Source: Alphaproteobacteria bacterium (lineage in GTDB: Bacteria; Pseudomonadota; Alphaproteobacteria; JASGCL01). Taken from it: a stretch of 64,000 nt of DNA. Where the stretch lies: positions 1,105,416-1,169,415 of the forward strand of contig CBDHFN010000003.1 of NCBI GenBank assembly GCA_965262605.1, written 5' to 3'. Positions 7,229 to 27,295 of the stretch are shown here, one piece after another (position 1 is the first letter of the stretch; every line of letters starts with the position of its first letter). A model generated the notes under the pieces. That model did not search any database. It saw only the letters and a list, made by a program, of their open reading frames with translations, and was not told the DNA's origin. Position numbers and translations under genes: made by a program.

Positions 7229-7231
7229 TTT

Positions 7232-9046: not shown

Positions 9047-9811
9047 TCACTTAAAGCTTTGGACAAGCGAACCACAAATTAGCACCCAGCCATCAACCAT
9101 CACAAAAAATATTATCTTAAACGGCAAAGAAATGGCGGCGGGTGGTAATAATTGCATGCCCATGGACACTAAAATTGAGGCAATCGCCATATCTATCACT
9201 AAAAAAGGCACAAAAATCAAAAAACCAATTTCAAATGCTCGTTTTACTTCGGAAATCATGAAGGCGGGCAATAAAACCCGCAAAGGCACGGTATCTATGG
9301 TGGTGGCTTTGTCAATATTTGCCAAATTAAGAAAAAGCCCAATCTCTTTTTCGCCGACATTGCGCGACATAAACGCGTGCATGGGTTTAATGGCTCGTTC
9401 CAAGGCAACTTCTTCGGTGATTTTTTGGGCAATTAAAGGGATTACTGCATCATTGTAAATTTTGGTAAAAGTTGGCTCCATCACAAAAAAAGTTAAAAAT
9501 ACCGCCAAGGCAATAATTACCATATTGGGCGGCGCGGTTTGCGTGCCAATGGCTTGACGCAAAAATGAAAGCACAACGACAATGCGCGTAAAGCTTGTCA
9601 TCATCACTAAAATACTGGGCGCAATGGAAAGCACGGTTACCACGACAATTAATTGGAATAACCTTGCGGTTACTGAACCGCCGCCTTGCCCAAAATTAAG
9701 TGATAGGGTTTGCGCCATTATCGGTTCGGCAAATAATGCCAAAATAGCAATGGGTATTATCCAGAAAATCCGATATTTTTTAATCGTATCAATGGTGATT
9801 TTATTTCTCAT
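9047..9811 (-). CDS. fliP: flagellar type III export apparatus protein FliP
   Basis: 254 aa, a signal peptide followed by the conserved FliP TM core (…MGMQLLPP…). Confidence 0.9.
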   Translation of the reverse strand: MRNKITIDTIKKYRIFWIIPIAILALFAEPIMAQTLSLNFGQGGGSVTARLFQLIVVVTVLSIAPSILVMMTSFTRIVVVLSFLRQAIGTQTAPPNMVIIALAVFLTFFVMEPTFTKIYNDAVIPLIAQKITEEVALERAIKPMHAFMSRNVGEKEIGLFLNLANIDKATTIDTVPLRVLLPAFMISEVKRAFEIGFLIFVPFLVIDMAIASILVSMGMQLLPPAAISLPFKIIFFVMVDGWVLICGSLVQSFK

Positions 9812-10139
9812 TTTCTAAGATTTTCTTGAAATTTTTGACGGGTTTTATGGTTTTTTTCTCGTAATTATGGGTTGAAATTGGCATGATTGTGTCGCCTTGA
9901 GGCGATATTAAAATGAAGAATTCTTCGCCTTCTTTGTCAATGACTATTAATTTTCGCTTGGCATCAAGCATAATTTGGTCGGTGATTTGCAATTTTCCAC
10001 TAAATTTATTGCCAAAAAGCGGATTTTTATATTTTTTTAACAATAAACCCATGCCGTAAATAACCGACAAAACTAAGCCTAGCATTAAAAACATATTAAT
10101 ATATGCGGAATAATCCATGATTGTCTCTCTCTTAATCAA
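9801..10139 (-). CDS. fliO: FliO-like small single-TM protein preceding fliP
   Basis: 112 aa, one N-terminal TM helix, 11-nt overlap with the fliP start. Assignment is by position and architecture only. Confidence 0.5.
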   Translation of the reverse strand: MIKRETIMDYSAYINMFLMLGLVLSVIYGMGLLLKKYKNPLFGNKFSGKLQITDQIMLDAKRKLIVIDKEGEEFFILISPQGDTIMPISTHNYEKKTIKPVKNFKKILENEK

Positions 10140-10219
10140 GCAATACCAATTTTGTATTGCAGTGCGCCCGATTAGTCAAGTAAAAAATTTTAATGTTATA
10201 AATTAACGCGGCGATTTTA

Positions 10220-10405
10220 TTATCGGTATTTTTTAAGCATTTTTTCAATGCTTGGCGCGATTTTCGGCGATTCGCCCAATTGGACTTGGGAATTATAAAA
10301 ATCTGGGTCGTTTTTCATTTTTTGTTCATATGCAATATATGATGGCGATTTTGAAAAATTATCGCGCAAATTTTCATGAATTTTTTTTAATATTTTTAAA
10401 ATCAT
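10220..10405 (-). CDS. hypothetical small basic protein (61 aa)
   Basis: ORF overlaps the stop of the upstream 281-aa gene by 4 nt; no recognisable family. Confidence 0.3.
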   Translation of the reverse strand: MILKILKKIHENLRDNFSKSPSYIAYEQKMKNDPDFYNSQVQLGESPKIAPSIEKMLKKYR

Positions 10406-11247
10406 GGGTTATCCTTTGTATTATTATTTTTGTATATTTTTTCAAAAGCGGTTTTAAAAAAATCTGGGTTTTGTGGAAAATTAGCTTCTGTGTATAAATA
10501 ATATGGCGGATATAATTCCCAAGCTTGAATTTCTGATAATTTAATGACTAGTAAACCTGAATTTACGCCTAAACCATTGTTGCCAAAAAATTTATCATTA
10601 AATAAATCATATAGTTTTTGTGCATCCTTGCTAGTTTTTTTCAATTCAAGATTTGTTTTATCGGCTTCAACTAAAAGATTCTCAATATCTTGATTTGATA
10701 CTATTCCGCCTTCAATCAATATCAAAGTCTGATATTTAATGTTATATTCTGCTAACGCTCCTGTATAAGCTTGATTATCATGATTTTTAAGTTTTATTTT
10801 TAAAAAGGGTAATTTGCGATATGGTGCATTTTTAATTAAATTTATTAAATATTTTTCTTCAATAGTCATTTTTTGCGATGGCAATAAATTATCCCAAATA
10901 TTCATTTTAGTAAAAAACAACATATAAATCAAATAAATGAATATTATAATTAATGGCGCGCCAAACAAATGGGTGAATGTTAACAATATAAAATTAAAGT
11001 TAAAATGAATATCATTATGGCTTAATATTAATTTGTAAATTTCTTTAAATGTCGTAATATCAAAAACTATGACAAAAAACATTATTAAAATATGAATAAA
11101 TACGGAATATACAATTGAATAAATTAGAAATTCATTTAATTCACGATTAAACCAAGACCTTATATATCTGGTAGCACGAAAAGTTATAAAACCCGGCACC
11201 GACAATAAAATTAATAAAAGCATTGTATTGGACGAAAATATTGGCAT
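10402..11247 (-). CDS. hypothetical membrane protein (4 TM plus soluble C-domain), very AT-rich
   Basis: 281 aa, hydrophobic N-half, K/N/I/Y-rich composition; first gene of the ...-fliO-fliP unit. Confidence 0.5.
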   Translation of the reverse strand: MPIFSSNTMLLLILLSVPGFITFRATRYIRSWFNRELNEFLIYSIVYSVFIHILIMFFVIVFDITTFKEIYKLILSHNDIHFNFNFILLTFTHLFGAPLIIIFIYLIYMLFFTKMNIWDNLLPSQKMTIEEKYLINLIKNAPYRKLPFLKIKLKNHDNQAYTGALAEYNIKYQTLILIEGGIVSNQDIENLLVEADKTNLELKKTSKDAQKLYDLFNDKFFGNNGLGVNSGLLVIKLSEIQAWELYPPYYLYTEANFPQNPDFFKTAFEKIYKNNNTKDNP

Positions 11248-11634
11248 AATTATATTATAACAAAAAACTGCGAAAATTGCAAGCGAATTGAATGTGGATA
11301 TTATCCAATTTTAAAATAAACTTTCTTCGTAAAAAGATTTAAAAGCAATTTAGGTAAACGATTCTGCATGCTTATTACTTTGTAGGCAACGGAATAATAG
11401 AGTTTTAAACCAAGCCATTAAATAATCTACGCGACACAAAGCAACTCACCAAGTTCCATGGTTTCAAGGGTGCTGTTAAGAATTATTTTTGCCCCCGCAA
11501 AAGGTTCGCACCAGACGGAATTATAGGCTTGATGGTCAAAATTGCGCAGTAATTCAACCCAATGTTTAAATGGTTCAAGCATAAAGCAATTTTGTTTGGT
11601 ATAAAATTGCCCAAGTTCAATTTTTTCCATAATT

Positions 11635-13191
11635 TCACCAAGTGCTTTGATTTTTAAGAATAATGGGTAATTCATTGGCGATTCGCTGGGTGACAATATC
11701 CCAATTATCCGTGATTTTATCTTGGCGAAATAATTTTAATGAATGATAAAATGGGCTTCTGTTTGAAGTTCCCCAACGCCAATCAGACGAATGACAAACG
11801 GCAATTAAACCCGGCTTGCCAAGCGCGCCCGCAATATGCCCGTTAATATTCGCAATGGACACAACCGCATCCATTGCGTCAATCATTGCGGTTAAGCCAT
11901 CAACATTTTCCCAAATATCAATTTCTTTGATACTATATAAAGTTAAACCTAATTCTTTTTGAATTTCAACGACTTCTTTGTTATTCATCAAATATTGCAC
12001 CGCAATTGGCACGCCCCCCGCATCATAAACAAGCTTGATTAAATCGCGAAGCGACATGTTGCGCCGATAAGCATTAGGTCCAATAGTAGACCAGCTTAAC
12101 CCAACCAAAGGCTTACCGCCACTGGCTTTAAGCATTGCATCGCGAATCGCATTTTTAAGCACAGGGTCTGATTTTAACCATGCTTTGCGTGGGTATATGA
12201 CATTATGCGGGGCTTGGCGCATTAAATCACCCATGGGAACATGGTGCAGGATATTTCGTTCTTTGAGCCAGCTGGCTGGGGGCATGGAATTAAGAACTTC
12301 AATTTGTGGGTAAGTGCGCTTGAAAATTGGTGCCATTTTTAAGCTTGGGGCTAGATAAAGGGGGGTTTTTGCTTTTAGCAATCGGTCAAGATGCGAACAG
12401 AAAATAATCTCATCGCCCAAACCTTGTTCGCGCCAAACAATAAGGGGAGGGCGCGCCTCGTCTGGTTCGTCTTGCGGATACCAATATGCAATATCTTCGT
12501 AAAAATCGGGCGGAGTTTCATGAAAATCAGGGGAACGCCATCGGCATGTATATTGCGCCCAACCTAAATCAAAATCACCACGAAACAAATGCAACATGGA
12601 CATATTGCCCAAAGTACGCCCTTCAAAGGGATTTAATGCCAAAGCCCGCGCGTAAGTTTTTTCAGAATCATCATACCGCAAAAAATCACGATATAATAAC
12701 CCCAAATTGCAACAAGTTGAAAAGCTGTTCGGACCAAATTTTAAGGCATTTTCATAGGCAACTAAGGCTTCGTCATACATTAAATTATTGCGTAATGATA
12801 ACGCATAATGAAACCAAATATCAGGATTCGTGGGAAATCGTTCTACGGCGATTTTGCCCACGGTGATGGCTTCTGATTCTTTTTTATTTTCCCGCAAAAC
12901 ATGAATATAAAACATCAACATTTCAATGGTCATGTTTTGCAACGGCATGAAATTTGACATTACTTCCAATGCTTTTTTTGACTCTTTCTTCGTCATATAT
13001 AATTGCGCAAGATTAGTGCGCGTGGCGTGCGAATCAAATCGCCGTTTTAAAATATCTTCGTATACTGCTTGGGCTTCTTCAAATTTATTTTCCATATGAA
13101 ACCGCACACCGCGTTCATGGTCCTTTACCACATCAGGTGGTATAGGATACGAAGTTGCTGCTTGTAATTTTTTTTCGGTTTTTCCATACAT
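11635..13191 (-). CDS. TPR-repeat plus GT9-like (heptosyltransferase-fold) glycosyltransferase
   Basis: N-terminal TPR repeats; C-half with a G-L-G-D motif (WREQGLGDEIIF) and a GT-B C-lobe pattern (NINGHIAGALGKPGLIAV). Confidence 0.6.
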   Translation of the reverse strand: MYGKTEKKLQAATSYPIPPDVVKDHERGVRFHMENKFEEAQAVYEDILKRRFDSHATRTNLAQLYMTKKESKKALEVMSNFMPLQNMTIEMLMFYIHVLRENKKESEAITVGKIAVERFPTNPDIWFHYALSLRNNLMYDEALVAYENALKFGPNSFSTCCNLGLLYRDFLRYDDSEKTYARALALNPFEGRTLGNMSMLHLFRGDFDLGWAQYTCRWRSPDFHETPPDFYEDIAYWYPQDEPDEARPPLIVWREQGLGDEIIFCSHLDRLLKAKTPLYLAPSLKMAPIFKRTYPQIEVLNSMPPASWLKERNILHHVPMGDLMRQAPHNVIYPRKAWLKSDPVLKNAIRDAMLKASGGKPLVGLSWSTIGPNAYRRNMSLRDLIKLVYDAGGVPIAVQYLMNNKEVVEIQKELGLTLYSIKEIDIWENVDGLTAMIDAMDAVVSIANINGHIAGALGKPGLIAVCHSSDWRWGTSNRSPFYHSLKLFRQDKITDNWDIVTQRIANELPIILKNQSTW

Positions 13192-13256
13192 AATATCAGA
13201 TTAATTTCATAATTCGCAATAAGTGTCAATAGTATTAATAAAATTTACTTTAAATA

Positions 13257-14423
13257 TTATGTTCTTTGAATCGTATAATTGCTTCTGAACGGCAACATGG
13301 TAATATTATCGGCAAATTTGTCAGAAATGTTATTTTGGCAATCTTGATATTGAGGTTTTGATTGAATTGCAAGATGCCAAAAATGTTGAGCAAGAATATC
13401 ATTGCCTTGCCATTGCTTGGCAATCGCGTAGTTATTGTATAAAGCAGCATCAATTTCGTTAGTTAATATCATGTTAAGTTTTTCATTGGCTAAAATCGGC
13501 AATCCCAAATTCAAGTAATTAACACCCATCGCGAAATGCGATAAATAAAATAAATCGCGCTGATAGCCTTGATGCACAAGCTTATCAATATCAGGTATTT
13601 TAGATAATTCATGCAAAATTTCGTTTGATTCGTGAAAATACCCGCAAAACTGCTTAAATGAACTTAAAATCCATAATTGCATCGGTTTAGGAATCATTGA
13701 TTGGCTTAATGTGTTTTTAACTTTATCAAAAGGTAATAATCGGTAATTATGGGTTAAATTACGCTTAATTAACGGAAATTTTGATGAAATTGAGCCGGGT
13801 TGATTGCGATATTCGTATAAAAAATCATCGCAATATGAAATTTTTGCATGATTTAAAATTGCTTGCAATTTAAAAAAATAATCCTCGCCAGAAAGAGAAT
13901 AGGGTGAAAATGGATATTTTCTGGCAAATTCCGTATTAAATCCATGGCAAATGGCGGTCGGTTGCCAATGGCGTTCAAATTCAAAATAAATACCATGGGG
14001 TTGTTTTATAAAATCCGCAATTTTAAAAGCCGAAATTGATTGATTGGCAATATCATTAATGGTAAAATTAGGGTAAATTAAATCGCATTCTTGTTCGGCA
14101 AAGATTTGCAAATAAGTTTCAGCCGCATGGGCGGGTAAAATATCATCACTATCAAGCCACATACCATATTTAGTTTGAATTTGATTAATCGCATATTGCC
14201 GCAAATGCCCCAATGAAACCCGTGTTGGAATTTTTTCAATGGTGCAATTGTGAAAATTACAATCGCGCACGATTTTCAATGTATCATCGGAACTTTGGTC
14301 GTCAATGATTAATATTTTTGCGACATTATTAGCAAAAGCCGATAATATGCTTTCTTTGATGGTTTTTTCGGCATTGCGCGCCACCATACATATCGTCATA
14401 TCATGGTGAATATTTTTCGTCAT
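13257..14423 (-). CDS. family-2 glycosyltransferase with C-terminal extension
   Basis: GT2 N-domain (ICMVARNAEKTI...ILIIDDQSSDDT...DSDD) followed by about 150 aa of helical repeat-like sequence. Confidence 0.7.
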   Translation of the reverse strand: MTKNIHHDMTICMVARNAEKTIKESILSAFANNVAKILIIDDQSSDDTLKIVRDCNFHNCTIEKIPTRVSLGHLRQYAINQIQTKYGMWLDSDDILPAHAAETYLQIFAEQECDLIYPNFTINDIANQSISAFKIADFIKQPHGIYFEFERHWQPTAICHGFNTEFARKYPFSPYSLSGEDYFFKLQAILNHAKISYCDDFLYEYRNQPGSISSKFPLIKRNLTHNYRLLPFDKVKNTLSQSMIPKPMQLWILSSFKQFCGYFHESNEILHELSKIPDIDKLVHQGYQRDLFYLSHFAMGVNYLNLGLPILANEKLNMILTNEIDAALYNNYAIAKQWQGNDILAQHFWHLAIQSKPQYQDCQNNISDKFADNITMLPFRSNYTIQRT

Positions 14424-16504
14424 TCTTTCAAATGCACAAACATGGCGGTAATATCATCGCTTTGGTCGTGTCCATTTACAAATTCTTCAATGGCGTGCAT
14501 CATAAAATTCATATTTTCGGCAACACCTTTGTTAAAATCAGTATTGTTTAGCACATTAAGCACGCGCGCTTCCCCAAATAATTCTTCGTTTTTGTTAAAT
14601 GCCTCGGTTACCCCATCAGTGAATAAGAATAATCGGTCGCCTTTATTAAATGGAATAGTAATTTGGCTATATTCAATGTCTGGCATGATAGCCGTCACTA
14701 AGTCACCCGTTGATTGCAAAAATTCAATATCCTTGCCGTTATTGCGGATAATTGCAGGCGGGTTATGCCCGGCATTACAATATTCAAATGTGCCATTTTT
14801 AAAATCTATAATGCCATAAAATAAGGTGACAAAAAAGTTATCTTGGTTATTCGCGGCTAATAAATTGTTGGATTTTTGCACGGTTTCTGCGGCAGTCGCG
14901 CAATTTTGCGCAAAAACTTGCAGCACGGTTTTAGAAACCATCATAAATAATGCCGATGGCACACCTTTGTCCGAGACATCGCCAACTAAGAATCCTAGGC
15001 GATTATCATCAATCATAAAATAATCATAAAAATCACCACCCACGGCTTTTGAAGGCTTTAACAGAGCTTGTAATTCAATTTTTTCATGGTTAAAGCTTGC
15101 GGCAGGAACATAAGAGAGCTGCACTCTTCTTGCTATATCAAGCTCCTTTTGTATAGCCATAAATCGCGTTTGCGTGGCAAGTGCCTCTTTTAATTCGTCA
15201 ATCACTTCATTTAATTTTGATTGTTTTGATATTAAGCTTGTGCCTAATTTGCGCAAAGTCAAAGCAAGCGAGCCAAGTTCGTTGTTTTTTTGATGGTCAT
15301 CAGGCGAATTAATGTTTTTTTCGTTTAAGTTATGAAAATGAAAACTTAACTCCATTTTATCAGTTTGGTCTAAAACATCGCTTAGCTTGAAAATTTCTTC
15401 CTTAATAATTTTTTCGGTTCTTAATCGTTGCTTGACGCGCGAACGGCGCACTAACCAAAGATCTAAAAGCTGCTCACGCAGAATTTCAATGGCATTAAGC
15501 ATTTTATTAATTTCTGGAGTTTTAATATTACTGGTAATAACATGCGACGCATCGCCCCTTGAAAGATTTTCCAATACATTTGTGCAAATTTCCAAAGGTT
15601 GCAATGATTTATACATAATATATCGGACAAACCAAAGGCATAAAAACATAATTAAGATAAAACTACCAGCATATGTATATTGCAAATATAAAATGTCTTT
15701 GCTATTTTCAGTAGTGTCTTTTAATAAAACTAAATATGTTTTTTGATTGTTAAATACCTTGTCCATGGGAATTGTCGTGGCTGTATAAGTATAATTGCCG
15801 TCTTTTAGGTCAATCAATCGGTGGTCGTTGTCAATTATAATGGAATTGGCAATGTTTTTCCATACTTGCGTATCAATGCCTTCAATAATTCCACCATTGC
15901 GATTAACAATATAAACATGAGATTGCGTTTGATTCGCCAGCAATTCCAAAATGCTAACGACTGATTCCGCAATAACACCAACCCCAACAACTTCATAATT
16001 TTTTTCATTAATTATGGGAAATATATAAGTTAAAAATAAATGGCGGTTTTCATTATAGCCAAAACCATATTCCGCGCTTTTTTGATTGAGAACTTTTTCA
16101 ATTAATTTCTCGCTTACCGGGCTTATCGGGTTAAGATTGGACGAAGAACGATATTCAATTTTTCGTTCCAAATTAAAAATTTCAATGAATTTCTTGCCAT
16201 GGTTCAAATCATTTTCTAATATAGATTTAGAAAATAATTCATTGATTTTTATGCTTTTATTGGTATCAGTATCATTGGTTAGAATTTTAGCAACTTCTTT
16301 ACCTAATTTATTAATAATTTGAATGTTAGCGTCAAGCTTGTTATTGGTAATTCTTCGCCATATTTGATTTTTATCCGAAACTATAGTTTCAGTGAATTTA
16401 TTTTTAAATAAATTTTCTTGGTAATTAAACATCAGATGATTTGCACCACTAAGGCTTATAATCATGAACATAAATACGATAGTGATTTTATTCGTAATGG
16501 TCAT
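14420..16504 (-). CDS. membrane sensor with periplasmic domain, HAMP and C-terminal PP2C (SpoIIE/RsbU-type) serine phosphatase
   Basis: Two TM helices flank a roughly 250-aa periplasmic domain; HAMP-like segment; C-terminal PPM motifs (GDFYDY...VGDVSDKGVPSALFM...FTDGVTEA...DDIT). Confidence 0.75.
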   Translation of the reverse strand: MTITNKITIVFMFMIISLSGANHLMFNYQENLFKNKFTETIVSDKNQIWRRITNNKLDANIQIINKLGKEVAKILTNDTDTNKSIKINELFSKSILENDLNHGKKFIEIFNLERKIEYRSSSNLNPISPVSEKLIEKVLNQKSAEYGFGYNENRHLFLTYIFPIINEKNYEVVGVGVIAESVVSILELLANQTQSHVYIVNRNGGIIEGIDTQVWKNIANSIIIDNDHRLIDLKDGNYTYTATTIPMDKVFNNQKTYLVLLKDTTENSKDILYLQYTYAGSFILIMFLCLWFVRYIMYKSLQPLEICTNVLENLSRGDASHVITSNIKTPEINKMLNAIEILREQLLDLWLVRRSRVKQRLRTEKIIKEEIFKLSDVLDQTDKMELSFHFHNLNEKNINSPDDHQKNNELGSLALTLRKLGTSLISKQSKLNEVIDELKEALATQTRFMAIQKELDIARRVQLSYVPAASFNHEKIELQALLKPSKAVGGDFYDYFMIDDNRLGFLVGDVSDKGVPSALFMMVSKTVLQVFAQNCATAAETVQKSNNLLAANNQDNFFVTLFYGIIDFKNGTFEYCNAGHNPPAIIRNNGKDIEFLQSTGDLVTAIMPDIEYSQITIPFNKGDRLFLFTDGVTEAFNKNEELFGEARVLNVLNNTDFNKGVAENMNFMMHAIEEFVNGHDQSDDITAMFVHLKE

Positions 16505-17514
16505 GGCAAATATCCAACTATCTTAAATTGCTTTAATTGCGTGTATGAAGGATATTCATTCAATGCTTTAACAGCTTTAATATTTAGGGTGGCGAAATAT
16601 TCACTTGGGTTATAAAATTTAATGCTTTGGGGCGGGATTTGCCGAAATAAAATATCTTCGGTAAGTTTGCCCGCCGATTTACCAATACCCGTTAAATTGG
16701 AAACAATGCCAAATAAAGCTTTGCCTTCAAGCAACGGCGTTTCATAGGTGCTGAATACTGGAATTTTTTGTAATGTCGCAAAATGTGTAAATTTTGCTTG
16801 ATTATCAATGATGAATTTATCGGTGCCTAAATAAATTACATCAACATTATTTATTTTTAACTCCTCAAAAATTTGCTCCATTGAAAATAAAGATGGTTTG
16901 CCGTTAATGTCTTGCCCAATTTTTGCCTCATGAAAATTAATATTTTGTTGCCGAAGTTTTGTGATTAATTCGGTTTTATTAAAAACTGAAATAGGGTCAT
17001 TGGGGTTATAAACTACGCCGACTTTGGTAAATTTTTTAAAATCAAATAAACTGCTTAATTGCAAATCAATGGGGGCAAAATTGCTAATTCCAACGATGTT
17101 TCGTTCGGAACTTAAATATGACGCAATAATGCCATACTCCACCGAATAAGGTAAATTTACAAAAATACCGGGAATATTGGTGATAAATTTGTCCGATTGA
17201 TTTTTGTAATCACTAATTGTGCCAAAAATTAATTTAGTCGCCTCCGCACCATTTGTATAAACAAAATCAGGGTTTAAAGATTTGATAATATTAACTAAAT
17301 TTGATGGGTTTTGTTGATAATCTCTTAACGAATATTGCGTAATTTTAGTCGCAATTCTTCGTAAATTTAAGTAATTTTCAAATCCCTTTTCAATATGCGT
17401 GGGTAAGTCTGGAATGACTTGGACGATGATAAATGGATCGTTAATATCGCCTTTTTTTGCCCAAGATAAATTAGGCAAATATACTAACGCAAGAATTAAT
17501 ATAAATTTAAACAT
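16501..17514 (-). CDS. periplasmic binding protein of the ABC_sub_bind/COG2984 family (no cognate permease or ATPase adjacent)
   Basis: Signal peptide MFKFILILALVYLPNLSWA; two-lobed binding-protein pattern. Confidence 0.55.
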   Translation of the reverse strand: MFKFILILALVYLPNLSWAKKGDINDPFIIVQVIPDLPTHIEKGFENYLNLRRIATKITQYSLRDYQQNPSNLVNIIKSLNPDFVYTNGAEATKLIFGTISDYKNQSDKFITNIPGIFVNLPYSVEYGIIASYLSSERNIVGISNFAPIDLQLSSLFDFKKFTKVGVVYNPNDPISVFNKTELITKLRQQNINFHEAKIGQDINGKPSLFSMEQIFEELKINNVDVIYLGTDKFIIDNQAKFTHFATLQKIPVFSTYETPLLEGKALFGIVSNLTGIGKSAGKLTEDILFRQIPPQSIKFYNPSEYFATLNIKAVKALNEYPSYTQLKQFKIVGYLP

Positions 17515-19582
17515 GAGCCACCTTGAAATGCCGATTGGTAAATAATAACCAAATTATCATCATACTTAAACAAATTAATAGGGTAATTAAGAAATTATTA
17601 ATTGTTGCAAAATCATAAAACAGCCCGCTTATTAAAACACAAATGATGGACATGCTATAAAAAGTTTTGGATTTTATGATGACGCATGCTTGGATTTTTT
17701 CTGGATTATCTTTGCATATTTTCATGATGGTTTTATTAAAATCATTGCTTAAAATCGTATAGCTTACGCCCCATAAAAATACAGCATAATAAATATACGA
17801 ATTGTGAAATAAAATTAAAATAATACCAATCATAATTGCCAAAATGCCGATAATAAATCGGTTGGCGTTTTGCAATTTATTCCATGAATTTAAATTTTGT
17901 ATATTTTTGAAACAAGCAAATCCTAAGGCGTATAAGCAAAAACATAAACCGATTTGCGTAAAACTTTGGCTGGTTTTGAATAAATATAACGGCATAAAAA
18001 ACAACATTAATGAATAGCTTATCATCTTAATAGGCATTTCTACGCTTAACAACATAGAATAAATTTGGAATTTTTCATATTTGCTTAAAATATTTTTGGT
18101 GCGCAAAAATATGTTGATATTATTGATTTTGATGGTTGGCAAATCAATAAAAATTAAATAAATAATTGCAAATAAAAATATTCCGCTCATAATAATAAAA
18201 ACACTATTCATGGATATATTATCGGCAATAATTCCCCCCAATAATGGCGAAATAGAAAATGCCATAATAATGTATTTTTTATATGAAAAATTATGGTTAT
18301 ATGGATTAATTTCTGAATTATTAATATATTGCATTATTGTTGAAATAATGATTCCAAAGCTTAAACCCATAAAAACTCTAATCAAGATAATATAAAATAA
18401 ATTATTTGCATAATAAAGAATTACACAAGAAGCAAGCAAGGCGAACAAGGAGCATATTAATATAGATTTTGGCGAATATCGCGCATATAAAATTTGCGTG
18501 TATTGTTGCCCAATAGTTTTCATGATTATGAAACCGATAAACATGATTGCGATTGCGCTGCCTTCATGAATTTGCCAATTTAATTGGCTGGGATTAATTA
18601 TAAATGTTGGCAATATACCAGCCATTAAACCAAAACCTGCAAAAATTAAAAACAATGGAATAATGAAAGTTTCTAATGAAAATAATTTTTCGGGTATTTC
18701 ATGACCAAGCTTGCTTGTTTTAATTTTTTCATTCATCTCGTCAAGTAAATTTGTTAAGGCAATACCCTTTTCGGGATCAATTTGCGATTCAACCGCTTCG
18801 TTAGTTTCTTGAATTATATCAATAAAATATTCATTCTTGTTTTTAACAAATTGATTAATTTGCTGGCTAAATTTACCAATTTCATCGGTTTGATTAATAA
18901 ATAAATATCGCGAATAATTGCCATTTTTTAATCGTTCAATAAAATTCAAAATAAACGAGATATTATTAATAATTTTGGAATTAATTGCCCAAAATGTAAA
19001 GCAAACTGAAAGCCACACGCTGATGAATATAATAAAAATTAACTCAAAACCTATTTGTTCTAAAATATAACTGAAAAAATTATCTTTTAAATAAATTTTA
19101 ACTTCGCCTTCTTTATTTTCGGTGGAATAATAATCAAAAACAAAATTTGGTTTATTTTGAAAATTAAATTGTTCGTTTTTTTGCACGAATTGTTTGATGA
19201 TTTCATCGTCAGCATTCGTGATGGCGATGGCATAAAATGTTGGATTTTTTGCAAAATAATTGATGATTTCTTGGTCAAATCCCTTGATTTTACTGATGTC
19301 AAGCCCGTAATAAGCATATTTTGATATATCATTGGAGATAGCAACCCCAGTAATTTGGGCATTATTTTTGATGGTTGTTTCAATTTGATTGACCACAATT
19401 GTGTATGAAAATAAAAAAACAAGAAATATTAACAGCGTGCAAATTACGGCTAATAAAATCTTGATTTTTTTATATGCGATTGCCAATATATCCCGTGACT
19501 TATCGTCTTTTAAAAAATCAATATCATTTTTGGCAAGCGGTAATAAATTTAAGCCATTTAAAAAAGCATGGAATTTTATCAT
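17507..19582 (-). CDS. membrane protein: sensor-like N-terminus (TM-periplasmic-TM-HAMP) fused to a roughly 12-TM MFS-like transporter domain
   Basis: 691 aa; HAMP-like helix pair after the second TM; C-terminal 400 aa of repeated TM helices with MFS-like loops. Confidence 0.5.
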   Translation of the reverse strand: MIKFHAFLNGLNLLPLAKNDIDFLKDDKSRDILAIAYKKIKILLAVICTLLIFLVFLFSYTIVVNQIETTIKNNAQITGVAISNDISKYAYYGLDISKIKGFDQEIINYFAKNPTFYAIAITNADDEIIKQFVQKNEQFNFQNKPNFVFDYYSTENKEGEVKIYLKDNFFSYILEQIGFELIFIIFISVWLSVCFTFWAINSKIINNISFILNFIERLKNGNYSRYLFINQTDEIGKFSQQINQFVKNKNEYFIDIIQETNEAVESQIDPEKGIALTNLLDEMNEKIKTSKLGHEIPEKLFSLETFIIPLFLIFAGFGLMAGILPTFIINPSQLNWQIHEGSAIAIMFIGFIIMKTIGQQYTQILYARYSPKSILICSLFALLASCVILYYANNLFYIILIRVFMGLSFGIIISTIMQYINNSEINPYNHNFSYKKYIIMAFSISPLLGGIIADNISMNSVFIIMSGIFLFAIIYLIFIDLPTIKINNINIFLRTKNILSKYEKFQIYSMLLSVEMPIKMISYSLMLFFMPLYLFKTSQSFTQIGLCFCLYALGFACFKNIQNLNSWNKLQNANRFIIGILAIMIGIILILFHNSYIYYAVFLWGVSYTILSNDFNKTIMKICKDNPEKIQACVIIKSKTFYSMSIICVLISGLFYDFATINNFLITLLICLSMMIIWLLFTNRHFKVAHV

Positions 19583-20349
19583 GATGAATTATCCGCAAAA
19601 TCTATGGCAAGCATTTTGTTGCGCCTATCCTTCATAAAAATTTCATGCGCCTCAAGTTTTTTATTAGTTTCTTCGTTAAATTCATGATATTCGCGGTTTA
19701 ATTTTTTATTATTGAGCAAATAAAAGCTGTTCGCCTGTTTGTTAATGCGTTGGATAGCGCCCGCAAAAAAATTATTGGAAAAATAAAAACTTAACATCAC
19801 AATAAAGATGATGATAATCATAAGAAAGATCGTTATTTTGTAAGTAATTTCCATAATTTTACCATTGTAAATATTTTGCGGATAAGACGCAAGAAGCACA
19901 CCAGCAAAATTCCCAGTATCGTCCTTTAATGTAATGCCAACATAATTCGTTGTATTGTTAGAAAATTTTGGAGTAATTTCATATTTAATTTTTGCAAGCC
20001 ATTCTTCTGGAATTTTTTCATTGATAAATGAAGTGTCGGTTGAATATATTGTGATTCCTTCGTTATTGATAATATCTATAGTTTGCACATCAACTAATTG
20101 CACTGATAAAGCATCAATCATATTGGCGATATTCGGGGTTTTATCCAATGATCCACCCGTGTTAAGCCATATTTGAAAATTATTATGGATTGATGATAAA
20201 TATACTAAATAATTTTCTTCAACGAATTTTTGTTCTAATTTTTCGTATTTTTTGGTCAAAACAACACCATAAATCATTAACCCAAAAATTAATGGCAAAG
20301 CAATAATAATTGCGATTTTATGGCTTATTTTATCAAAAATTTTATTCAT
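19579..20349 (-). CDS. membrane sensor-like protein lacking an output domain (TM, 150-aa periplasmic domain, TM, short coiled-coil tail)
   Basis: 256 aa, topology inferred from hydrophobic segments; first gene of the four-gene unit. Confidence 0.45.
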   Translation of the reverse strand: MNKIFDKISHKIAIIIALPLIFGLMIYGVVLTKKYEKLEQKFVEENYLVYLSSIHNNFQIWLNTGGSLDKTPNIANMIDALSVQLVDVQTIDIINNEGITIYSTDTSFINEKIPEEWLAKIKYEITPKFSNNTTNYVGITLKDDTGNFAGVLLASYPQNIYNGKIMEITYKITIFLMIIIIFIVMLSFYFSNNFFAGAIQRINKQANSFYLLNNKKLNREYHEFNEETNKKLEAHEIFMKDRRNKMLAIDFADNSS

Positions 20350-20434
20350 TATATAAATGGTTTCCTGCGGATATTACCAACCGCTAATAGTATATTTTAT
20401 TTATATATCAATGTCAAGAATGATTTAATTAAGT

Positions 20435-20494: not shown

Positions 20495-21304
20495 ATGAAA
20501 AATACCATAACCGCATTTGAATTAAATGAAATATTAAACCAAGAAAATTTAATTATTATTGATTCCAGTTGGCATTTGCCCCAAGCAAAGCGCAATGCTT
20601 ATCAAGAATATTGCGAATCGCATATTAAAGGCGCGATTTTTTATGACATTGACGCACATTCGCGCCAAGATACACCATTGCCACATATGCTTTTGCCGTT
20701 TGAAGAATTGCAAATTAATATTCAAGAAATCGGCATTCAAGCTGATTCGCGCGTGGTAATTTATGATTCTGTCGGTATTTTTTCATGCGCAAGATTATGG
20801 TATATTTTAAAATCGCATGGGTTTAAAAGCGTTCAAGTTTTAAATGGCGGTTTGCCTGCTTGGGTTGCGGGGGGATTTGCGATGGAAAAAACAATAAATA
20901 ATCCCAAAGCCACAATGGAGAAAATTCTGAAAAAATCAAATTATATCAAAGATAAAAAATTCATTGATGATGCTAAAAATCATGATAATTGGTTGATAAT
21001 TGATGCAAGGTCAAGCGATAGATTCCATAGCCGAGTGCCCGAACCGCGCCCCAATACCCGAAGTGGCCATGTAGATGGCGCGATAAATATTCCGTATAAT
21101 CAAGTGCTTAATGCCGATGGGTGCTTAAAAAATCCAGACGAATTACATAAAATTTTTGCGGGCAAGGAATTTGACAAAGAAATTATCGTTTATTGTGGCT
21201 CTGGTATAACGGCTGCTGTTATATTGCTCGCGCTTGAATCAATTGGCAAACAAGCTTATTTATACGATGGCTCTTGGTCGGAATATGGTTTAATCACTGC
21301 TTGA
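20495..21304 (+). CDS. sseA: 3-mercaptopyruvate/thiosulfate sulfurtransferase (tandem rhodanese domains)
   Basis: Two rhodanese domains, active-site loop CGSGITAAV. Start taken at the ATG at 20495 after AAGGAG; the ORF-track start at 20435 is probably too early. Confidence 0.8.
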   Translation: MKNTITAFELNEILNQENLIIIDSSWHLPQAKRNAYQEYCESHIKGAIFYDIDAHSRQDTPLPHMLLPFEELQINIQEIGIQADSRVVIYDSVGIFSCARLWYILKSHGFKSVQVLNGGLPAWVAGGFAMEKTINNPKATMEKILKKSNYIKDKKFIDDAKNHDNWLIIDARSSDRFHSRVPEPRPNTRSGHVDGAINIPYNQVLNADGCLKNPDELHKIFAGKEFDKEIIVYCGSGITAAVILLALESIGKQAYLYDGSWSEYGLITA

Positions 21305-22058
21305 CGCGCCAGCCGATTTTTAATAAATAATATCCAAAAATCATGCAAATAAGGGTAATTGGCAGGAAAATATATAAAATGCTGAAATCAAATTGATTGA
21401 AAAACCACGCATTTTTGACATTGGTAAGTAATAAATAAATGGGATTATAATCCAATAAGAATTGATATTCTGTTAAAACGGCTTCTTTGGTAAAAAAAGT
21501 TCCCGATAATAAAAATAAAGGGGTCATTAAAATCATGTCAATGCGGGCTAAATGGTCCCATTTATCCGCCCAGAACATTGAAAAAATTGCGATGCTGGAA
21601 AACGCGCCGATTAAAATAACAATCAAAAAATAAATATATAAAATAGCAAGCAAGCTGGGCATGGGCATGCCCAATATTAAAATCAAAATAATGACCGGCG
21701 TCGCTGTAAACAGCGCGCTGATAAGCCCATCATAATAAATAGTTAGCAACCATATAAAAGGGTGCATGGGTGATGCTAAATAATCGTCAATTACTTTTTC
21801 TAATTTATAATAAAACATGGTGTAAGCAACATGTTCATAGGCGCGCTGGCAATGTAAAATTGTCCATAAATTTAGCCCAATAATTAAAGATAATGGTTGC
21901 AAATATAAGGGGTCTTGGGTATCGCCGATATAACGAAACACAAAAATAAATAATATGGCATTTATTAAATTTACTAAGCCCCAAGTAGGAGCTTCTAATA
22001 ATTCCAAAGTTTTAGCCCAGCAAATTGCTTTGAAAGTAATGAATTGTTTGCTAAGCAT
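21294..22058 (-). CDS. ABC-2 type transporter permease
   Basis: Six-TM ABC-2 pattern; start taken at the Met 3 nt after the upstream stop (22056-22058). Confidence 0.5.
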   Translation of the reverse strand: MLSKQFITFKAICWAKTLELLEAPTWGLVNLINAILFIFVFRYIGDTQDPLYLQPLSLIIGLNLWTILHCQRAYEHVAYTMFYYKLEKVIDDYLASPMHPFIWLLTIYYDGLISALFTATPVIILILILGMPMPSLLAILYIYFLIVILIGAFSSIAIFSMFWADKWDHLARIDMILMTPLFLLSGTFFTKEAVLTEYQFLLDYNPIYLLLTNVKNAWFFNQFDFSILYIFLPITLICMIFGYYLLKIGWRVKQ

Positions 22059-22060
22059 GC

Positions 22061-22858
22061 TTAATTTTTTAATTTCCAACCTGAATTTAATACTAAGATA
22101 ATAATGGTGATTAAAATTAAATCTAAACTGCTTAAAACGGCGATGCCAATCCATGGGTTAGTATCGCTTGTCCCCAAAAAACCATAACGAAACCCATCAA
22201 TCATAAAGAAAAACGGATTAACATGGCTGATGACTTGCATATAATCAGGTAAGTTTTTAATGGAATAAAATGTGCCGCTTAAAAAAATCAAGGGCGTGAT
22301 GAGAAAATTGACAAAAGCATTTAAATGGTCAAATTTTTGCGCCCATATCGCGCCAAATAAACCCAAAGAGCCCATCCAAAGCGAACCTAAAACGGCAAAA
22401 GCCAAGACAAAACCAATTTTTTGTGGATATATTGGCGCAAGAAATAATAAAGGAATCCAGCAAGAAATGCCAACAAATATTCCCCGTGTGATGCCTGAAA
22501 GCAACAATCCCCCCGCCATTTCCGCCGAATTAATCGGTGGCATTAAAAAATCAACAATATTGCCTTGCACTTTGGATACCATAATCGCCGAAGATACTGA
22601 TACAAAAGAGTTATTGGCGATGGTCATAATTAAAATGCCCGGTGCTAAAAATAACTGCACTGCATTAAAATCTTCGCTTGTGCCTGTATGCTTTAACGCC
22701 AAAGAAAAAACGATAAAATATAATAAATTTGTAACCGAAGGTCCCAATAAAGTTTGCGTCCAAATATTTGTAAATCGCCTTACTTCCTTGAAATAAAGCG
22801 TGCGAAAGCCAATAAAGTTGAAGTTTTTAAATTTTAATGGTTCGTTATAGCCGTTCAT
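22061..22858 (-). CDS. ABC-2 type transporter permease (NodJ/YadH-like)
   Basis: 265 aa with an ABC-2 membrane-domain pattern. Confidence 0.6.
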   Translation of the reverse strand: MNGYNEPLKFKNFNFIGFRTLYFKEVRRFTNIWTQTLLGPSVTNLLYFIVFSLALKHTGTSEDFNAVQLFLAPGILIMTIANNSFVSVSSAIMVSKVQGNIVDFLMPPINSAEMAGGLLLSGITRGIFVGISCWIPLLFLAPIYPQKIGFVLAFAVLGSLWMGSLGLFGAIWAQKFDHLNAFVNFLITPLIFLSGTFYSIKNLPDYMQVISHVNPFFFMIDGFRYGFLGTSDTNPWIGIAVLSSLDLILITIIILVLNSGWKLKN

Positions 22859-22932
22859 GGTGCACCTTTTTAATATATATGGCGTATTAATACTATATTT
22901 TCATCATTATGCAAGAATTATTTGAAAATAAC

Positions 22933-23643
22933 TTAATGCCCGCCTTCAAGATAAGCAGCTTTAATGGCTGGATTGCTCAATAATTCTTCGCCAGTGCCAG
23001 TAAGGGTAATTTCGCCATTCACAAGCACATAGCCGCGGTGGGCTAATTTTAAAGCGTGATGGGCATTTTGTTCAACCAAAAGCACCGTCATTTTTTTGCG
23101 TTCATTAATTTCCTTGATGGCTTGAAAAATTTGCCTGACAATAATTGGTGCTAAGCCAAGCGATGGTTCGTCAAGCAATAAAATTTTTGGCTCACTCATT
23201 AACGCGCGGGCAATGGCAAGCATTTGCTGTTCCCCGCCTGATAAAGTGCCACCACGCTGGGATTGGCGTTCTTTTAATCTTGGGAATAAATGATAAATTT
23301 CATCAAGTTTTGCGTTGAAATTTTTGGGGTCGGCGAATAACGCGCCAAGCTGTAAATTCTCATATACCGTGAGTTTAGAGAATATCCTTCTGCCTTCGGG
23401 GGATATTGCCAAACCTTGCTTAACAATTTCATTGGGTTTTTGGGTTGTAATATCTTTGTCATATAATTTAATTGAACCATTGCGCGCATGAACTACTCCG
23501 CAAATCGTCATTAATAATGTTGATTTTCCCGCACCATTTGCACCGATAAGCGAGACAATTTCGCCTTCGTTAACTTGGCAAGAAACATTCTTCAGTGCTT
23601 GAATTGAACCATAAAATGAATCTATATTGGCGATATTAAGCAT
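22933..23643 (-). CDS. livF: branched-chain amino acid (HAAT family) ABC transporter ATP-binding protein LivF
   Basis: Walker A GANGAGKST, signature LSGGEQQM, Walker B LLLDEPS. Start set at MLNIANI, 2 nt after the livG stop. Confidence 0.85.
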   Translation of the reverse strand: MLNIANIDSFYGSIQALKNVSCQVNEGEIVSLIGANGAGKSTLLMTICGVVHARNGSIKLYDKDITTQKPNEIVKQGLAISPEGRRIFSKLTVYENLQLGALFADPKNFNAKLDEIYHLFPRLKERQSQRGGTLSGGEQQMLAIARALMSEPKILLLDEPSLGLAPIIVRQIFQAIKEINERKKMTVLLVEQNAHHALKLAHRGYVLVNGEITLTGTGEELLSNPAIKAAYLEGGH

Positions 23644-23644
23644 G

Positions 23645-24430
23645 TTATTCCTCTTCCCCCAAATAAGCAGCAATGACTTTGGGGTTATTTTTGACAGAAT
23701 CAGCATCACCTTCGGCAATTTTTTTGCCATAATCCAAAACAATAATGCGGTCTGAAATTTTCATAACCACGGACATATCATGCTCAATTAACAAAATGCT
23801 TACTTTATAATCATTTTTAATTTTAATTAAATATTCGTTTAATTCTAAGGATTCCTTGGGGTTTAGCCCCGCCGCAGGTTCATCAAGGCAGAGGATTTTT
23901 GGCTTAGTCGCCAAGGCGCGGGCAATTTCTAATCTTCTTTGGTCGCCATATGGTAATGAACCCGCTTCATCATCAGCGCGGTCATATAAACCGATTAATT
24001 TTAAAGACTCCATCGCTTCATCAACGGCATTTTTTTCGGCTTTTTTCCATGATTTTAAGCCTAATAAGCCCAAAATGCTAAAACCTGACGCGCGCATTAA
24101 TTCATTATGCCTTGCGACTAAAATATTTTCCAGCACCGTCATTTTGTTAAATAAACGAATATTTTGAAAAGTCCGCGCCACTTTTGCCTTTGATGCAACC
24201 ATATAAGACGGCATTTGTTCAAGATAATGTTTTTTATCGCCATGCAGCGTGATTCTGCCAATCGTGGGGGAATAAAACCCGGTAATGCAGTTAAATAAAG
24301 TTGTTTTGCCCGCACCATTTGGTCCAATTATCGCGGTAATTTCCCCCGCCATTGCTTGAAATGATACATCATCAACTGCCGTAATACCGCCAAATTTCAT
24401 GGTTAAATGTTCGGTTTCAAGGATAATCAT
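23645..24430 (-). CDS. livG: HAAT-family ABC transporter ATP-binding protein LivG
   Basis: Walker A GPNGAGKTT, an LivG-specific insertion, Walker B LCLDEPAAG. Confidence 0.85.
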   Translation of the reverse strand: MIILETEHLTMKFGGITAVDDVSFQAMAGEITAIIGPNGAGKTTLFNCITGFYSPTIGRITLHGDKKHYLEQMPSYMVASKAKVARTFQNIRLFNKMTVLENILVARHNELMRASGFSILGLLGLKSWKKAEKNAVDEAMESLKLIGLYDRADDEAGSLPYGDQRRLEIARALATKPKILCLDEPAAGLNPKESLELNEYLIKIKNDYKVSILLIEHDMSVVMKISDRIIVLDYGKKIAEGDADSVKNNPKVIAAYLGEEE

Positions 24431-25902
24431 GATTTTTTCCCCAATAATTTACCAATCAAGGGTAATGAATTTTTTGGGGTAAAAAAGCTTACCGATGGTT
24501 CGCGGTGCGAAATTAACCCTTGGGGTCTGAAAATCATAATAACGACAAGCCCTAAACCAAAACTTACCATGCGGTATTCGGCTAAGTCGCGAAAAACTTC
24601 GGGCAGTCCGATTAAGGCAATCGCCGCCAACGCAACCCCTGTAAGCGAGCCCATGCCGCCCATTACGACAATCGCTAAGATAATTGCTGATTCAATGTAA
24701 GCAAAGCTTTCTGGGCTAACAAATCCTTGTCTTGTCGCAAAAAATGCGCCCGCAAATCCGCCCCACATTGCCGAAATTGCGAATGCCGCCAATTTGATAT
24801 TCGTGCGGTTAATTCCCAATGAAGCCGATGCTAAATCATCTTCGCGAAGTGCCTCCCATGCGCGTCCAATAGGTAATTTACGAATCCGCACGGTGAAAAT
24901 CGCCACCAGCATTGCCATCGTGAAAATTAAATAATATAAGAAAATTATCCGTTGGTCTGATGAATATTCAATGCCAAAAAATTCGGCGAAACTTGGTAAA
25001 CCATTTTTACCTTGGGGCGCAAACACAGCTAAGCCAAAGAAATCTGGACGCGCGATGGAGCTTATACCACCTGCACCATGTGTAAATGAAGTCCAATTAA
25101 TGATAATAACCCTGATAATTTCACCAAAACCCAAGGTGACAATGGCGAAATAATCGCCCCTTAACTTTAACACGGGAAAGCCTAAAATTAAGCCACCCAA
25201 TGCCGCAAATAACCCTGATAATGGCAAGCATAACCAAAAACTTAACCCCAATGTTGTTGATAAAATCGCGTAAGTATATGCCCCAATCGCGTAAAACGCA
25301 ACATAGCCTAAATCTAATAAACCTGCATAACCAACGATAATATTTAAGCCCCAAGCCAACATGACATATGTAAATATTAAGGTGCTGACATCCAAAACAT
25401 ACCGATTCGCAAACGGCATAAAAGGAAGAAATAATGCAAAAATTACCACAAATATAGAAATAAATTGCGTATATTTACGCAATTTTGCTTCACGAATTTC
25501 CTTTGATTTGTCTAATTGTGCTTGGGTTATATGTCTTGAAGCCCTTGACAAGCCAATTGCCGACTTAATCGCCAATAATATTGACCCGCCAATTAAAATT
25601 ACTCGCAATAATTCAAATGGAATTGGAAACAAGAACCCCGCAACACCAATTATTATGCTTGCGCTTAAAACAGATTTATGATAGGCGTGCCTATCTAAAA
25701 TTAATCCCAACCTGCCAATAACCACAAATACCAACGCCCATAATGCTTGAATATAGCGTGGTTCAATTTCAATGCCAGTTACTTTATCAACCGCTTTAAG
25801 CGCAAGAATCGGGTATAATAAAAGACAAGAAATACCAGCAATCGCGCCCAACTCACGCAATACTTCGCCCCAATTTAATTTGCCGTTTGCCGTATTATTC
25901 AT
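24427..25902 (-). CDS. livM: HAAT-family ABC transporter permease LivM (with N-terminal extension)
   Basis: LivM-type permease core with extra N-terminal TM helices. Confidence 0.8.
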   Translation of the reverse strand: MNNTANGKLNWGEVLRELGAIAGISCLLLYPILALKAVDKVTGIEIEPRYIQALWALVFVVIGRLGLILDRHAYHKSVLSASIIIGVAGFLFPIPFELLRVILIGGSILLAIKSAIGLSRASRHITQAQLDKSKEIREAKLRKYTQFISIFVVIFALFLPFMPFANRYVLDVSTLIFTYVMLAWGLNIIVGYAGLLDLGYVAFYAIGAYTYAILSTTLGLSFWLCLPLSGLFAALGGLILGFPVLKLRGDYFAIVTLGFGEIIRVIIINWTSFTHGAGGISSIARPDFFGLAVFAPQGKNGLPSFAEFFGIEYSSDQRIIFLYYLIFTMAMLVAIFTVRIRKLPIGRAWEALREDDLASASLGINRTNIKLAAFAISAMWGGFAGAFFATRQGFVSPESFAYIESAIILAIVVMGGMGSLTGVALAAIALIGLPEVFRDLAEYRMVSFGLGLVVIMIFRPQGLISHREPSVSFFTPKNSLPLIGKLLGKKS

Positions 25903-27104: not shown

Positions 27105-27295
27105 AATTGAGTGTATGGTTTATTTTAATGTTATTTTTCGTAAGTTTAATTTTATATATAAACATATATATAAAATTAGAGTGGAAATAAATGTTTAGGT
27201 ATTATTTTTTGCCAAAATTCCAACGATTAATAAAAAAAGTCGCTGAATGGGATAATTTTTGGTATAAGGCGCAACGCAACCAGATAAGAAAAATT

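Follow-up and report, generated by a model that had tools for sequence, protein, structure and literature searches.

A four-gene locus with a HAMP-transporter fusion and a sensor PP2C phosphatase as the putative sensory core of a proteobacterial partner-switching pathway

What is a phosphatase of the partner-switching type doing in an operon of membrane sensors, a transporter-like fusion and a lone binding protein, with neither a STAS protein nor a kinase encoded beside it? The question is raised by a stretch of 64,000 nucleotides (nt) from an Alphaproteobacteria bacterium (GTDB lineage JASGCL01; assembly GCA_965262605.1, contig CBDHFN010000003.1, positions 1,105,416 to 1,169,415 of the forward strand), hereafter the window, in which four minus-strand genes, here called P1 to P4 or the quartet, successively overlap by 4 (P1/P2), 8 (P2/P3) and 4 nt (P3/P4):

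19579-20349, minus strand: P1 (gene 1), sensor-like membrane protein, 256 amino acids (aa), ATG start
17507-19582, minus strand: P2 (gene 2), fusion of a sensor and HAMP region to a major facilitator superfamily (MFS) domain, 691 aa, ATG start
16501-17514, minus strand: P3 (gene 3), secreted solute-binding protein, 337 aa, ATG start
14420-16504, minus strand: P4 (gene 4), sensor-HAMP-PP2C phosphatase, 694 aa, ATG start

We put at roughly 0.7 the probability that the quartet serves a conserved, uncharacterised proteobacterial partner-switching pathway as its membrane-bound sensory core and works by the mechanism proposed below. The locus had been singled out in an earlier reading of the DNA made without database searches (the original prediction), whose gene boundaries and minus-strand overlaps were recovered exactly as open reading frames (ORFs). 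Its statement that the quartet is not a described system also holds, as full-text searches of the literature returned no description of the cluster.

Word-indexed homologue searches had made the locus look nearly unique: P2 retrieved itself and one 32%-identical protein only, P3 itself only, and P4 nothing other than PP2C-domain matches. This impression was overturned by an exhaustive HMMER profile search with the P2 pair as query against 1.84 billion cluster representatives, which tied the window P2 to a family of 223 representatives at E ≤ 1e-3. About 100 of the best 150 matches were 640-770 aa long and aligned from the sensor, or from the region of transmembrane helix 2 (TM2) and HAMP, through the MFS domain, and several passed the Pfam HAMP and MFS_1 models both. 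A scan of GTDB, taken at one genome per species, found nothing with the two-sequence alignment; with a nine-sequence core alignment it gave 134 confirmed relatives, and 80 loci were retrieved and read. A metagenome scan with the P4 alignment returned distant family members and generic PP2C proteins only, and no close kin of the reduced cluster found in the window. To read the loci, component hidden Markov models (HMMs) were built domain by domain from the window and two related contigs, L001 and L007, and mapped on all ORFs. In GC-rich loci these ORFs are longest-ORF calls, some of them too long, and the counts given here use domain coordinates. The family HMMs matched the window proteins at E 6e-51 (P1), 1e-85 (P3), 9e-63 (P4 sensor) and 8e-92 (PP2C).

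Across the related loci the order P1, sCache/HAMP/MFS protein (P2), binding protein (P3) and dCache/HAMP/PP2C protein (P4) is kept almost everywhere, and the window has the same order. The carriers comprise Magnetospirillum, Paramagnetospirillum, Phaeospirillum, Roseospira, Terasakiella, Thalassospira, Geminicoccaceae and others among the Alphaproteobacteria, and Arenicellales, Beggiatoa, Neptunomonas and Thiotrichales among the Gammaproteobacteria. An RsbW-type serine kinase was present in 68 of the 72 loci with a P4-type protein, fused to the P4 C-terminus in 42 and encoded by a separate small gene in 26. A small STAS gene lay within the fetched stretch in 54 of the 72, a lower bound with 8 kb of flank fetched on each side. 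The kinase retains its N, G1 and G2 boxes, and the STAS consensus retains the YISSAGLR serine motif. On the contig of the nearest long match (L007, 33% GC), for example, the genes run STAS, P1, P2, P3, dCache/SpoIIE and HATPase_c_2. The slot after P4 is held in the relatives by the kinase or an alpha/beta-hydrolase; in the window, the place of the kinase is taken by a glycosyltransferase gene. Only three P4-carrying loci, those of the window, of L001 and of L022, showed neither kinase nor STAS. No recognisable target of the switch recurred among the neighbours conserved in the related loci.

Because a kinase accompanies P4 in 68 and a STAS gene in 54 of these 72 loci, we take the quartet to be, as far as homology can indicate, the sensory core of a partner-switching pathway. 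Nor is it a chance arrangement, as the same four genes stand in the same order in L001 and in about 80 distant loci. The original prediction had pictured an isolated oddity without partner-switch partners, and had named an Rsb-type locus with STAS and kinase genes nearby as the finding that would speak against it. The family is such a locus, whereas the window copy is not, and the local absence of the partners is a lineage-specific exception. Similarly, the neighbourhood search that it had suggested in other alphaproteobacteria did recover the same quartet, but extended it to Gammaproteobacteria and usually found it with kinase or STAS genes.

Some further features of the related loci stand beside this core. 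Immediately behind the PP2C or kinase gene, 46 loci have an alpha/beta-hydrolase gene and 43 a His-phosphatase (PGAM-like) gene, in alpha- as well as gammaproteobacterial members (for example, L007:7914-9654, L066:13793-14893 and L029:14902-15492). Both genes are absent from the window; they may be additional components of the system or represent its metabolic side. In two loci, the complete cluster is accompanied by an additional P1-P2-P3 set that is convergent to it and lacks its own PP2C gene (L032:12855-15778 and L055:12794-15717), which suggests that the sensor/transporter modules can be duplicated and may share one phosphatase. The metagenome contigs L089, L092 and L093 have variant arrangements, among them the series kinase-P1-P4 without a P2 gene (L089) and a 1037-aa ORF to which the profiles of PP2C, P2 and P1 all match (L092). 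The modules of the family have evidently been shuffled in some lineages.

Judging from hydropathy, P4 begins with a TM-periplasmic-TM unit, and its parts are as follows:

15695-16429, minus strand: P4 periplasmic sensor of double-Cache type, residues 26-270, between TM1 and TM2
15458-15619, minus strand: P4 HAMP, residues 296-349, followed by a conserved coiled linker
14432-15139, minus strand: P4 PP2C/SpoIIE phosphatase domain, residues 456-691

The Pfam SpoIIE model matches residues 499-691 (E 4.5e-46). The catalytic, metal-binding motifs GGDFYD, GDVSDKG, TDG and SDDIT are intact and invariant in the family alignment, where the columns of D491, D509, D630/G631 and D683/D684 do not vary among 54 members, the window included. 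By Pfam, all 54 P4-type proteins carry SpoIIE, 51 HAMP, 27 HATPase_c_2, 17 dCache_1 and 12 dCache_3. The nearest solved PP2C domains, those of PA2798/RssB, SiaA (6k4e) and Rv1364c, all belong to partner-switch phosphatases, and at the sequence level the domain is closest to REC-PP2C and PP2C-HATPase_c_2 proteins of the RssB/HsbR type.

P2 has the same TM-periplasmic-TM layout at its N-terminus by hydropathy, with a transporter fold in place of the phosphatase:

19040-19402, minus strand: P2 periplasmic sensor, single-Cache-like, about residues 61-181, between TM1 and TM2
18797-18964, minus strand: P2 HAMP, residues 207-262, followed by a conserved linker
17531-18667, minus strand: P2 MFS domain with 12 helices, residues 306-684

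Pfam MFS_1 matches residues 311-622 (E 4e-15), and among the P2-type proteins (n = 58) Pfam recognises MFS_1 in all 58, HAMP in 28 and sCache_3_2 in 7. The nearest solved MFS relatives of the family are of the DHA1/SLC18 kind (NorA, VMAT2, VAChT, EmrB and MdfA), and in most relatives the domain retains motif A and the conserved acidic residues of TM1. The HAMP regions of the window proteins required a different approach. The Pfam HAMP model was not significant in P2 or P4 of the window, the best match being HAMP_2 in P4 (E 0.045). Family HAMP profiles, cut from alignments of the relatives with the window, L001 and L007 removed, scored 16.7 bits on P2 residues 207-262 and 31.3 bits on P4 residues 296-349. 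Consistently, BLAST aligned residues 185-242 of the window P2 with residues 281-338 of the L001 P4 (E 1e-4), and the family profiles match solved HAMP structures, namely Af1503 (2y20, 2l7i) for P4 and 9trk for P2. The originally predicted HAMP domains of P2 and P4 are thus correct, but only via homology to less diverged relatives, and the generic Pfam model did not bear them out. The MFS-like, COG2984-type and PP2C assignments passed the Pfam check directly, through MFS_1, ABC_sub_bind and SpoIIE.

P1 had been regarded as one of two independent sensors without an output domain, a view that the family alignments do not support. It has no significant Pfam match; by hydropathy, two TM helices enclose a periplasmic domain of some 140 aa, and about 60 aa form a cytoplasmic tail. 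Aligned by hhalign, the P1 family and the N-terminus of the P2 family match with 98.3% probability (E 1.3e-14) over about the first 270 residues of P2, a stretch that takes in both TM helices, the periplasmic domain between them and the beginning of the cytoplasmic part. P1 is thus a paralogue of the P2 sensor module, minus the MFS domain, and it sits upstream of P2 in essentially all related loci.

P3, the always-present neighbour of P2 in the related loci, is a secreted solute-binding protein of PF04392 (COG2984), matched by ABC_sub_bind at E 2e-16 and provided with a signal peptide by hydropathy; its nearest PDB entries are 6hni and 3lkv. The operon holds no cognate ATP-binding cassette (ABC) permease or ATPase for it. 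No BPD_transp_2 permease occurs in the about 80 related loci and ABC ATPases are present in only 4 of them, so that P3 is an orphan throughout the family. The idea that it serves a transporter of its own operon was rejected, since neither a permease nor an ATPase is found there, nor BPD_transp_2 in the relatives.

Elsewhere in the window, at 21294-26807 on the minus strand, lies a Liv-type ABC importer consisting of two BPD_transp_2 permeases and an ATPase with a branched-chain C-terminal motif. It has no adjoining binding-protein gene; ahead of it lie a pair of ABC-2 exporter-like permeases and another ATPase. P3 is the only binding protein near this importer, 3.3 kb apart and in a separate transcription unit, and a functional link between the two is possible.

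How, then, does the window copy differ from the family? Its closest relative is L001, a 30-kb contig of another assembly and the source of the 32%-identical P2 match mentioned above, on which the whole quartet recurs in unchanged order, its genes overlapping by 4 nt, at 41, 32, 43 and 53% identity for P1, P2, P3 and P4; a third copy, L006, is partial. Identity between the window and L001 is spread very unevenly over the domains. The P2 values are 58% for the periplasmic domain, 44% for HAMP and linker and 22% for the MFS domain; in P4, the periplasmic domain is 33%, HAMP 39%, the linker 70% and the PP2C domain 76% identical. Of the 68 MFS positions conserved in at least 90% of the family, the window retains 20, L001 19 and L007 38. 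The EE..R cluster of TM1 is gone from the window P2, with F, G and A in place of E317, E318 and R321, and its motif A (DRxGxRR in the family) is degenerate. From the regional identities, the losses in the MFS domain and the intact PP2C motifs it follows that this lineage preserves the P2 sensor and the phosphatase and lets the transporter fold drift, without a kinase or STAS gene beside the operon. The window and L001 are rare reduced versions of the cluster. Because it has drifted so far from the family consensus, the MFS domain of the window is, judging from its residues, probably a signalling scaffold rather than an efficient transporter.

The L001 contig ends 179 nt past P4, and its tail holds a terminator-like hairpin, not the start of a kinase gene. 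The hairpin, AACAAGCAatcaTGCTTGTT with a T run behind it (L001:15330-15360), stands some 110 nt beyond the PP2C stop. Each of the three contigs with this gene breaks off a short way past it, a hint of a repeat or an assembly break at that place.

The mechanism that we propose takes the homology, gene order, domain content and kinase/STAS co-occurrence observed in the loci and extends them with the logic of RsbU/RsbV/RsbW and with sensing of the LuxP-LuxQ type. P3 would capture a periplasmic ligand and dock, as LuxP does on LuxQ, on the Cache domain of P4 and/or of P1/P2. HAMP would relay the signal and thereby switch the PP2C domain, which would dephosphorylate phospho-STAS; STAS would then capture the kinase, and a target would be freed. 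P2 and P1 would probably act as a transporter-type co-sensor, the part given to the MFS domain being conjecture. More speculatively, P1 and P2 may form a heterodimer with a single MFS domain on a shared sensor/TM module, which would report or control the flux of the same compound or of one related to it. As for the kinase and STAS genes of this genome, they would either lie elsewhere in the chromosome, as in Chlamydia, or have been lost.

Several observations weigh against this interpretation. Family HMMs run over all six frames of the 64 kb (frames of at least 40 codons) found no match to STAS (best E 0.12) and none to the RsbW-type kinase (best E 0.91). In P1, the family HAMP profiles detect no HAMP signature, which weakens the case for a HAMP bundle shared between P1 and P2. 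Finally, an AlphaFold2 model of P2 from the two-sequence alignment reached a predicted local distance difference test score of 38.9, was uninformative and was not used. Besides these, the six frames of the window contain no second PP2C, and no sigma-factor domain appears in the Pfam tables of the window ORFs scanned (1-52359). The original prediction that no STAS, kinase or sigma gene is adjacent to the quartet was therefore accurate.

A bolder proposal, which we regard as doubtful, is that the Cache-HAMP-MFS fusion is a new signalling device in which HAMP is wired to a transporter fold, such that the sensor gates the transporter or the transport cycle is read through HAMP. The fusion would pair with the MFS-less P1 in an asymmetric heterodimer and, jointly with the binding protein, set how active the partner-switch phosphatase is. 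In the reduced genome of the window, the system would have been rewired: the kinase and STAS would be lost, the MFS domain would have become a scaffold, and the PP2C would be tied to the glycosyltransferase/flagellar operon and act on a new substrate.

Less probable is a self-contained input module, in which the PP2C would control flagellar assembly or the glycosylation of flagellin or the surface via a non-STAS substrate. This comes close to the original prediction of a module controlling flagellum and glycosylation expression, and it draws on the genes downstream of P4, which begin with:

13257-14423, minus strand: glycosyltransferase family 2 (GT2) gene, translationally coupled to P4 by a 4-nt overlap with the P4 stop
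11635-13191, minus strand: TPR protein, TPR region at the N-terminus, C-terminal 300 aa without Pfam match
10402-11247, minus strand: membrane protein of 281 aa, no assigned family

These genes and the following FliO, whose assignment is weak (E 0.009), and FliP share the strand of the quartet with gaps of at most 387 nt, so the array does run on into a glycosyltransferase and fliO-fliP as predicted (gaps of up to about 390 bp). The 4-nt overlap of the GT2 start with the PP2C stop speaks for such a module, and GT2 and P4 are probably co-transcribed. The nearest PP2C sequences are moreover of the RssB/HsbR type, and HsbR-HsbA acts on FlgM in Pseudomonas. However, GT2 is outside the conserved system, without a homologue in any related locus, and the TPR protein, the 281-aa protein, FliO and the rhodanese gene upstream of the quartet likewise have no counterpart in any other of the about 80 loci; FliP occurs in one other locus, at a distance and not beside the quartet. 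The L001 operon ends in its terminator-like hairpin right after the PP2C gene, and the slot after P4 belongs in the relatives to the kinase or the hydrolase. Control of the flagellum or of glycosylation, as first envisaged, thus goes back to adjacency in a single genome, and we consider it unlikely.

The minus-strand genes at 9047-14423 could form a flagellin or surface glycosylation set beside flagellar export genes. A GT9-like domain guessed for the C-terminal 300 residues of the TPR protein found no support in Pfam and was dropped.

Quite unlikely, in our assessment, is a binding-protein-dependent MFS transporter, in which P3 would feed P2 via the Cache domain, with the role of the PP2C confined to tuning expression or activity. 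The constant adjacency of P2 and P3, the lack of an ABC permease with P3 and the retention of motif A and the TM1 acidic residues in most relatives would fit this arrangement, and the hydrolase (46 loci) and His-phosphatase-like genes (43 loci) suggest that a compound is processed. Yet the nearest solved MFS proteins (NorA, VMAT2, EmrB and MdfA) are exporters or antiporters, not importers, and the window domain has lost 48 of the 68 conserved positions, the TM1 EE..R cluster and motif A included, while the sensor is conserved. Transport by an MFS protein that depends on a binding protein is, to our knowledge, without precedent.

That the locus is a decaying, non-functional remnant of a six-gene system in a reduced genome is very improbable, because the missing kinase and STAS genes in the 64 kb, the strongly diverged MFS domain and the two HAMP regions no longer recognised by Pfam are set against four intact ORFs with coupled start and stop codons, intact catalytic PP2C motifs, and a set kept in a second genome in which these proteins are only 32-53% identical but the PP2C domain is 76% and the P2 sensor 58% identical.

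The remainder of the window is ordinary chromosome with a GC content of about 36%, carrying dnaN, rsmB, greA, tyrS and genes of pyrimidine, aromatic and lysine biosynthesis, in a small (1.7 Mb), low-GC genome. Upstream of the quartet are the rhodanese gene, the ABC-2 exporter-like set and the Liv-type importer. The region's best promoter-like match falls into the 85-nt gap to the divergent rhodanese gene, 40 nt upstream of the P1 ATG:

20389-20417, minus strand: sigma-70-like promoter match, TTGACA-17-TATACT, 11/12, a match to the consensus only

In this AT-rich region, the total count of sigma-70-like matches is not above that in shuffled sequences. Just past the ABC importer genes, at 27191-29503 on the plus strand, a 770-aa protein with RTX calcium-binding nonapeptide repeats is encoded, and between dnaN and fliP, at 6590-9030 on the plus strand, lie genes for an LpoB-like lipoprotein, a CsgG-like protein and a glycine-zipper protein.

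What would a partner-switching core of this composition mean? Partner-switching pathways are widespread, and their input signals are mostly obscure. A partner switch with a membrane sensor PP2C is of a well-known kind; what appears to be undescribed is its constant association with an orphan PF04392 protein, a Cache-HAMP-MFS fusion and the MFS-less paralogue of that fusion. RefSeq names the fusion "MFS transporter" only, as in Beggiatoa leptomitoformis and Thioflexithrix psekupsensis, and NCBIfam has no specific model for the window proteins. As the sensory core of a partner switch, the cluster would offer a defined four-part periplasmic input, made up of a binding protein, two Cache-type sensors and a transporter-like domain downstream of HAMP; solved members of the P3 family include amino-acid binders. 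In the usual descriptions, HAMP domains pass signals to kinases, cyclases or the signalling domains of chemoreceptors, and a HAMP kept before an MFS fold in more than 100 species would widen what this domain can couple to. The cultured carriers, among them Magnetospirillum, Thalassospira, Terasakiella, Neptunomonas and Beggiatoa, make the cluster a tractable case of transport-linked signalling. The window, for its part, displays what a small low-GC genome has kept of the system (the P2 sensor and the PP2C domain) and what has drifted (the MFS domain) or disappeared (the kinase and STAS).

Among known systems, the closest in logic is RsbU-RsbV-RsbW. As described in PMC11619594, which cites Soules et al. 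2020, Chlamydia RsbU is a periplasmic-sensor PP2C. Like the RsbU of Chlamydia trachomatis, P4 combines a periplasmic Cache-type sensor, TM helices and a cytoplasmic PP2C of the SpoIIE family, and, as in the Rsb system, an RsbW-type kinase and a STAS protein bearing a phosphorylatable serine are encoded with the relatives of the quartet. In the window the partner genes are not adjacent, as is also the case for Chlamydia rsbU: rsbV2 lies away from rsbU, with miaA as its putative operon partner, and so provides an intracellular precedent for partner-switch genes that are dispersed (PMC11619594). Unlike RsbU-RsbV-RsbW, the quartet always adds P1, the HAMP-MFS fusion and the orphan binding protein, and in 42 of 72 loci phosphatase and kinase form one fused protein.

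A second comparison is with SiaA of the SiaABCD system of Pseudomonas aeruginosa, a membrane HAMP-PP2C phosphatase that opposes a kinase on a small partner protein (PMC7647112). With the structure 6k4e, SiaA also supplies one of the nearest solved relatives for the P4 PP2C domain. Membership of P4 in the SiaA family was rejected, as it scored 44.9 bits with the NCBIfam SiaA model against a cut-off of 700, and no equivalents of SiaB, SiaC or SiaD were detected among the annotated ORFs of the window. Unlike P4, SiaA has no binding-protein or MFS partners.

For the binding protein, the models are LuxP-LuxQ and TorT-TorS, in which an orphan periplasmic binding protein is encoded beside a membrane sensor with a periplasmic double-PAS/Cache domain and signals by docking on it. 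The P3 gene similarly adjoins sensor genes, and docking is presumed by analogy. The quartet differs from both in that its output is a PP2C phosphatase, not a histidine kinase, and in that its binding protein is of PF04392.

For the fusion, UhpC/UhpB is an example of a secondary transporter coupled to signalling. CbrA and CrbS are SLC5/STAC histidine kinases, in which an N-terminal transporter domain feeds the kinase (PMC9100948). Like these, the P2 family couples a secondary-transporter domain to a signalling pathway. In contrast to CbrA and CrbS, however, the order in P2 is sensor-HAMP-MFS, with HAMP upstream of the transporter and the enzymatic output on a separate protein. Finally, the 12-helix MFS_1 match places P2 nearest, among solved structures, to the DHA1/SLC18 proteins NorA, VMAT2 and MdfA, from which the window copy departs by its degenerate motif A and TM1 acidic residues, and P2 by an N-terminal extension of about 300 residues that runs TM-Cache-TM-HAMP-linker.

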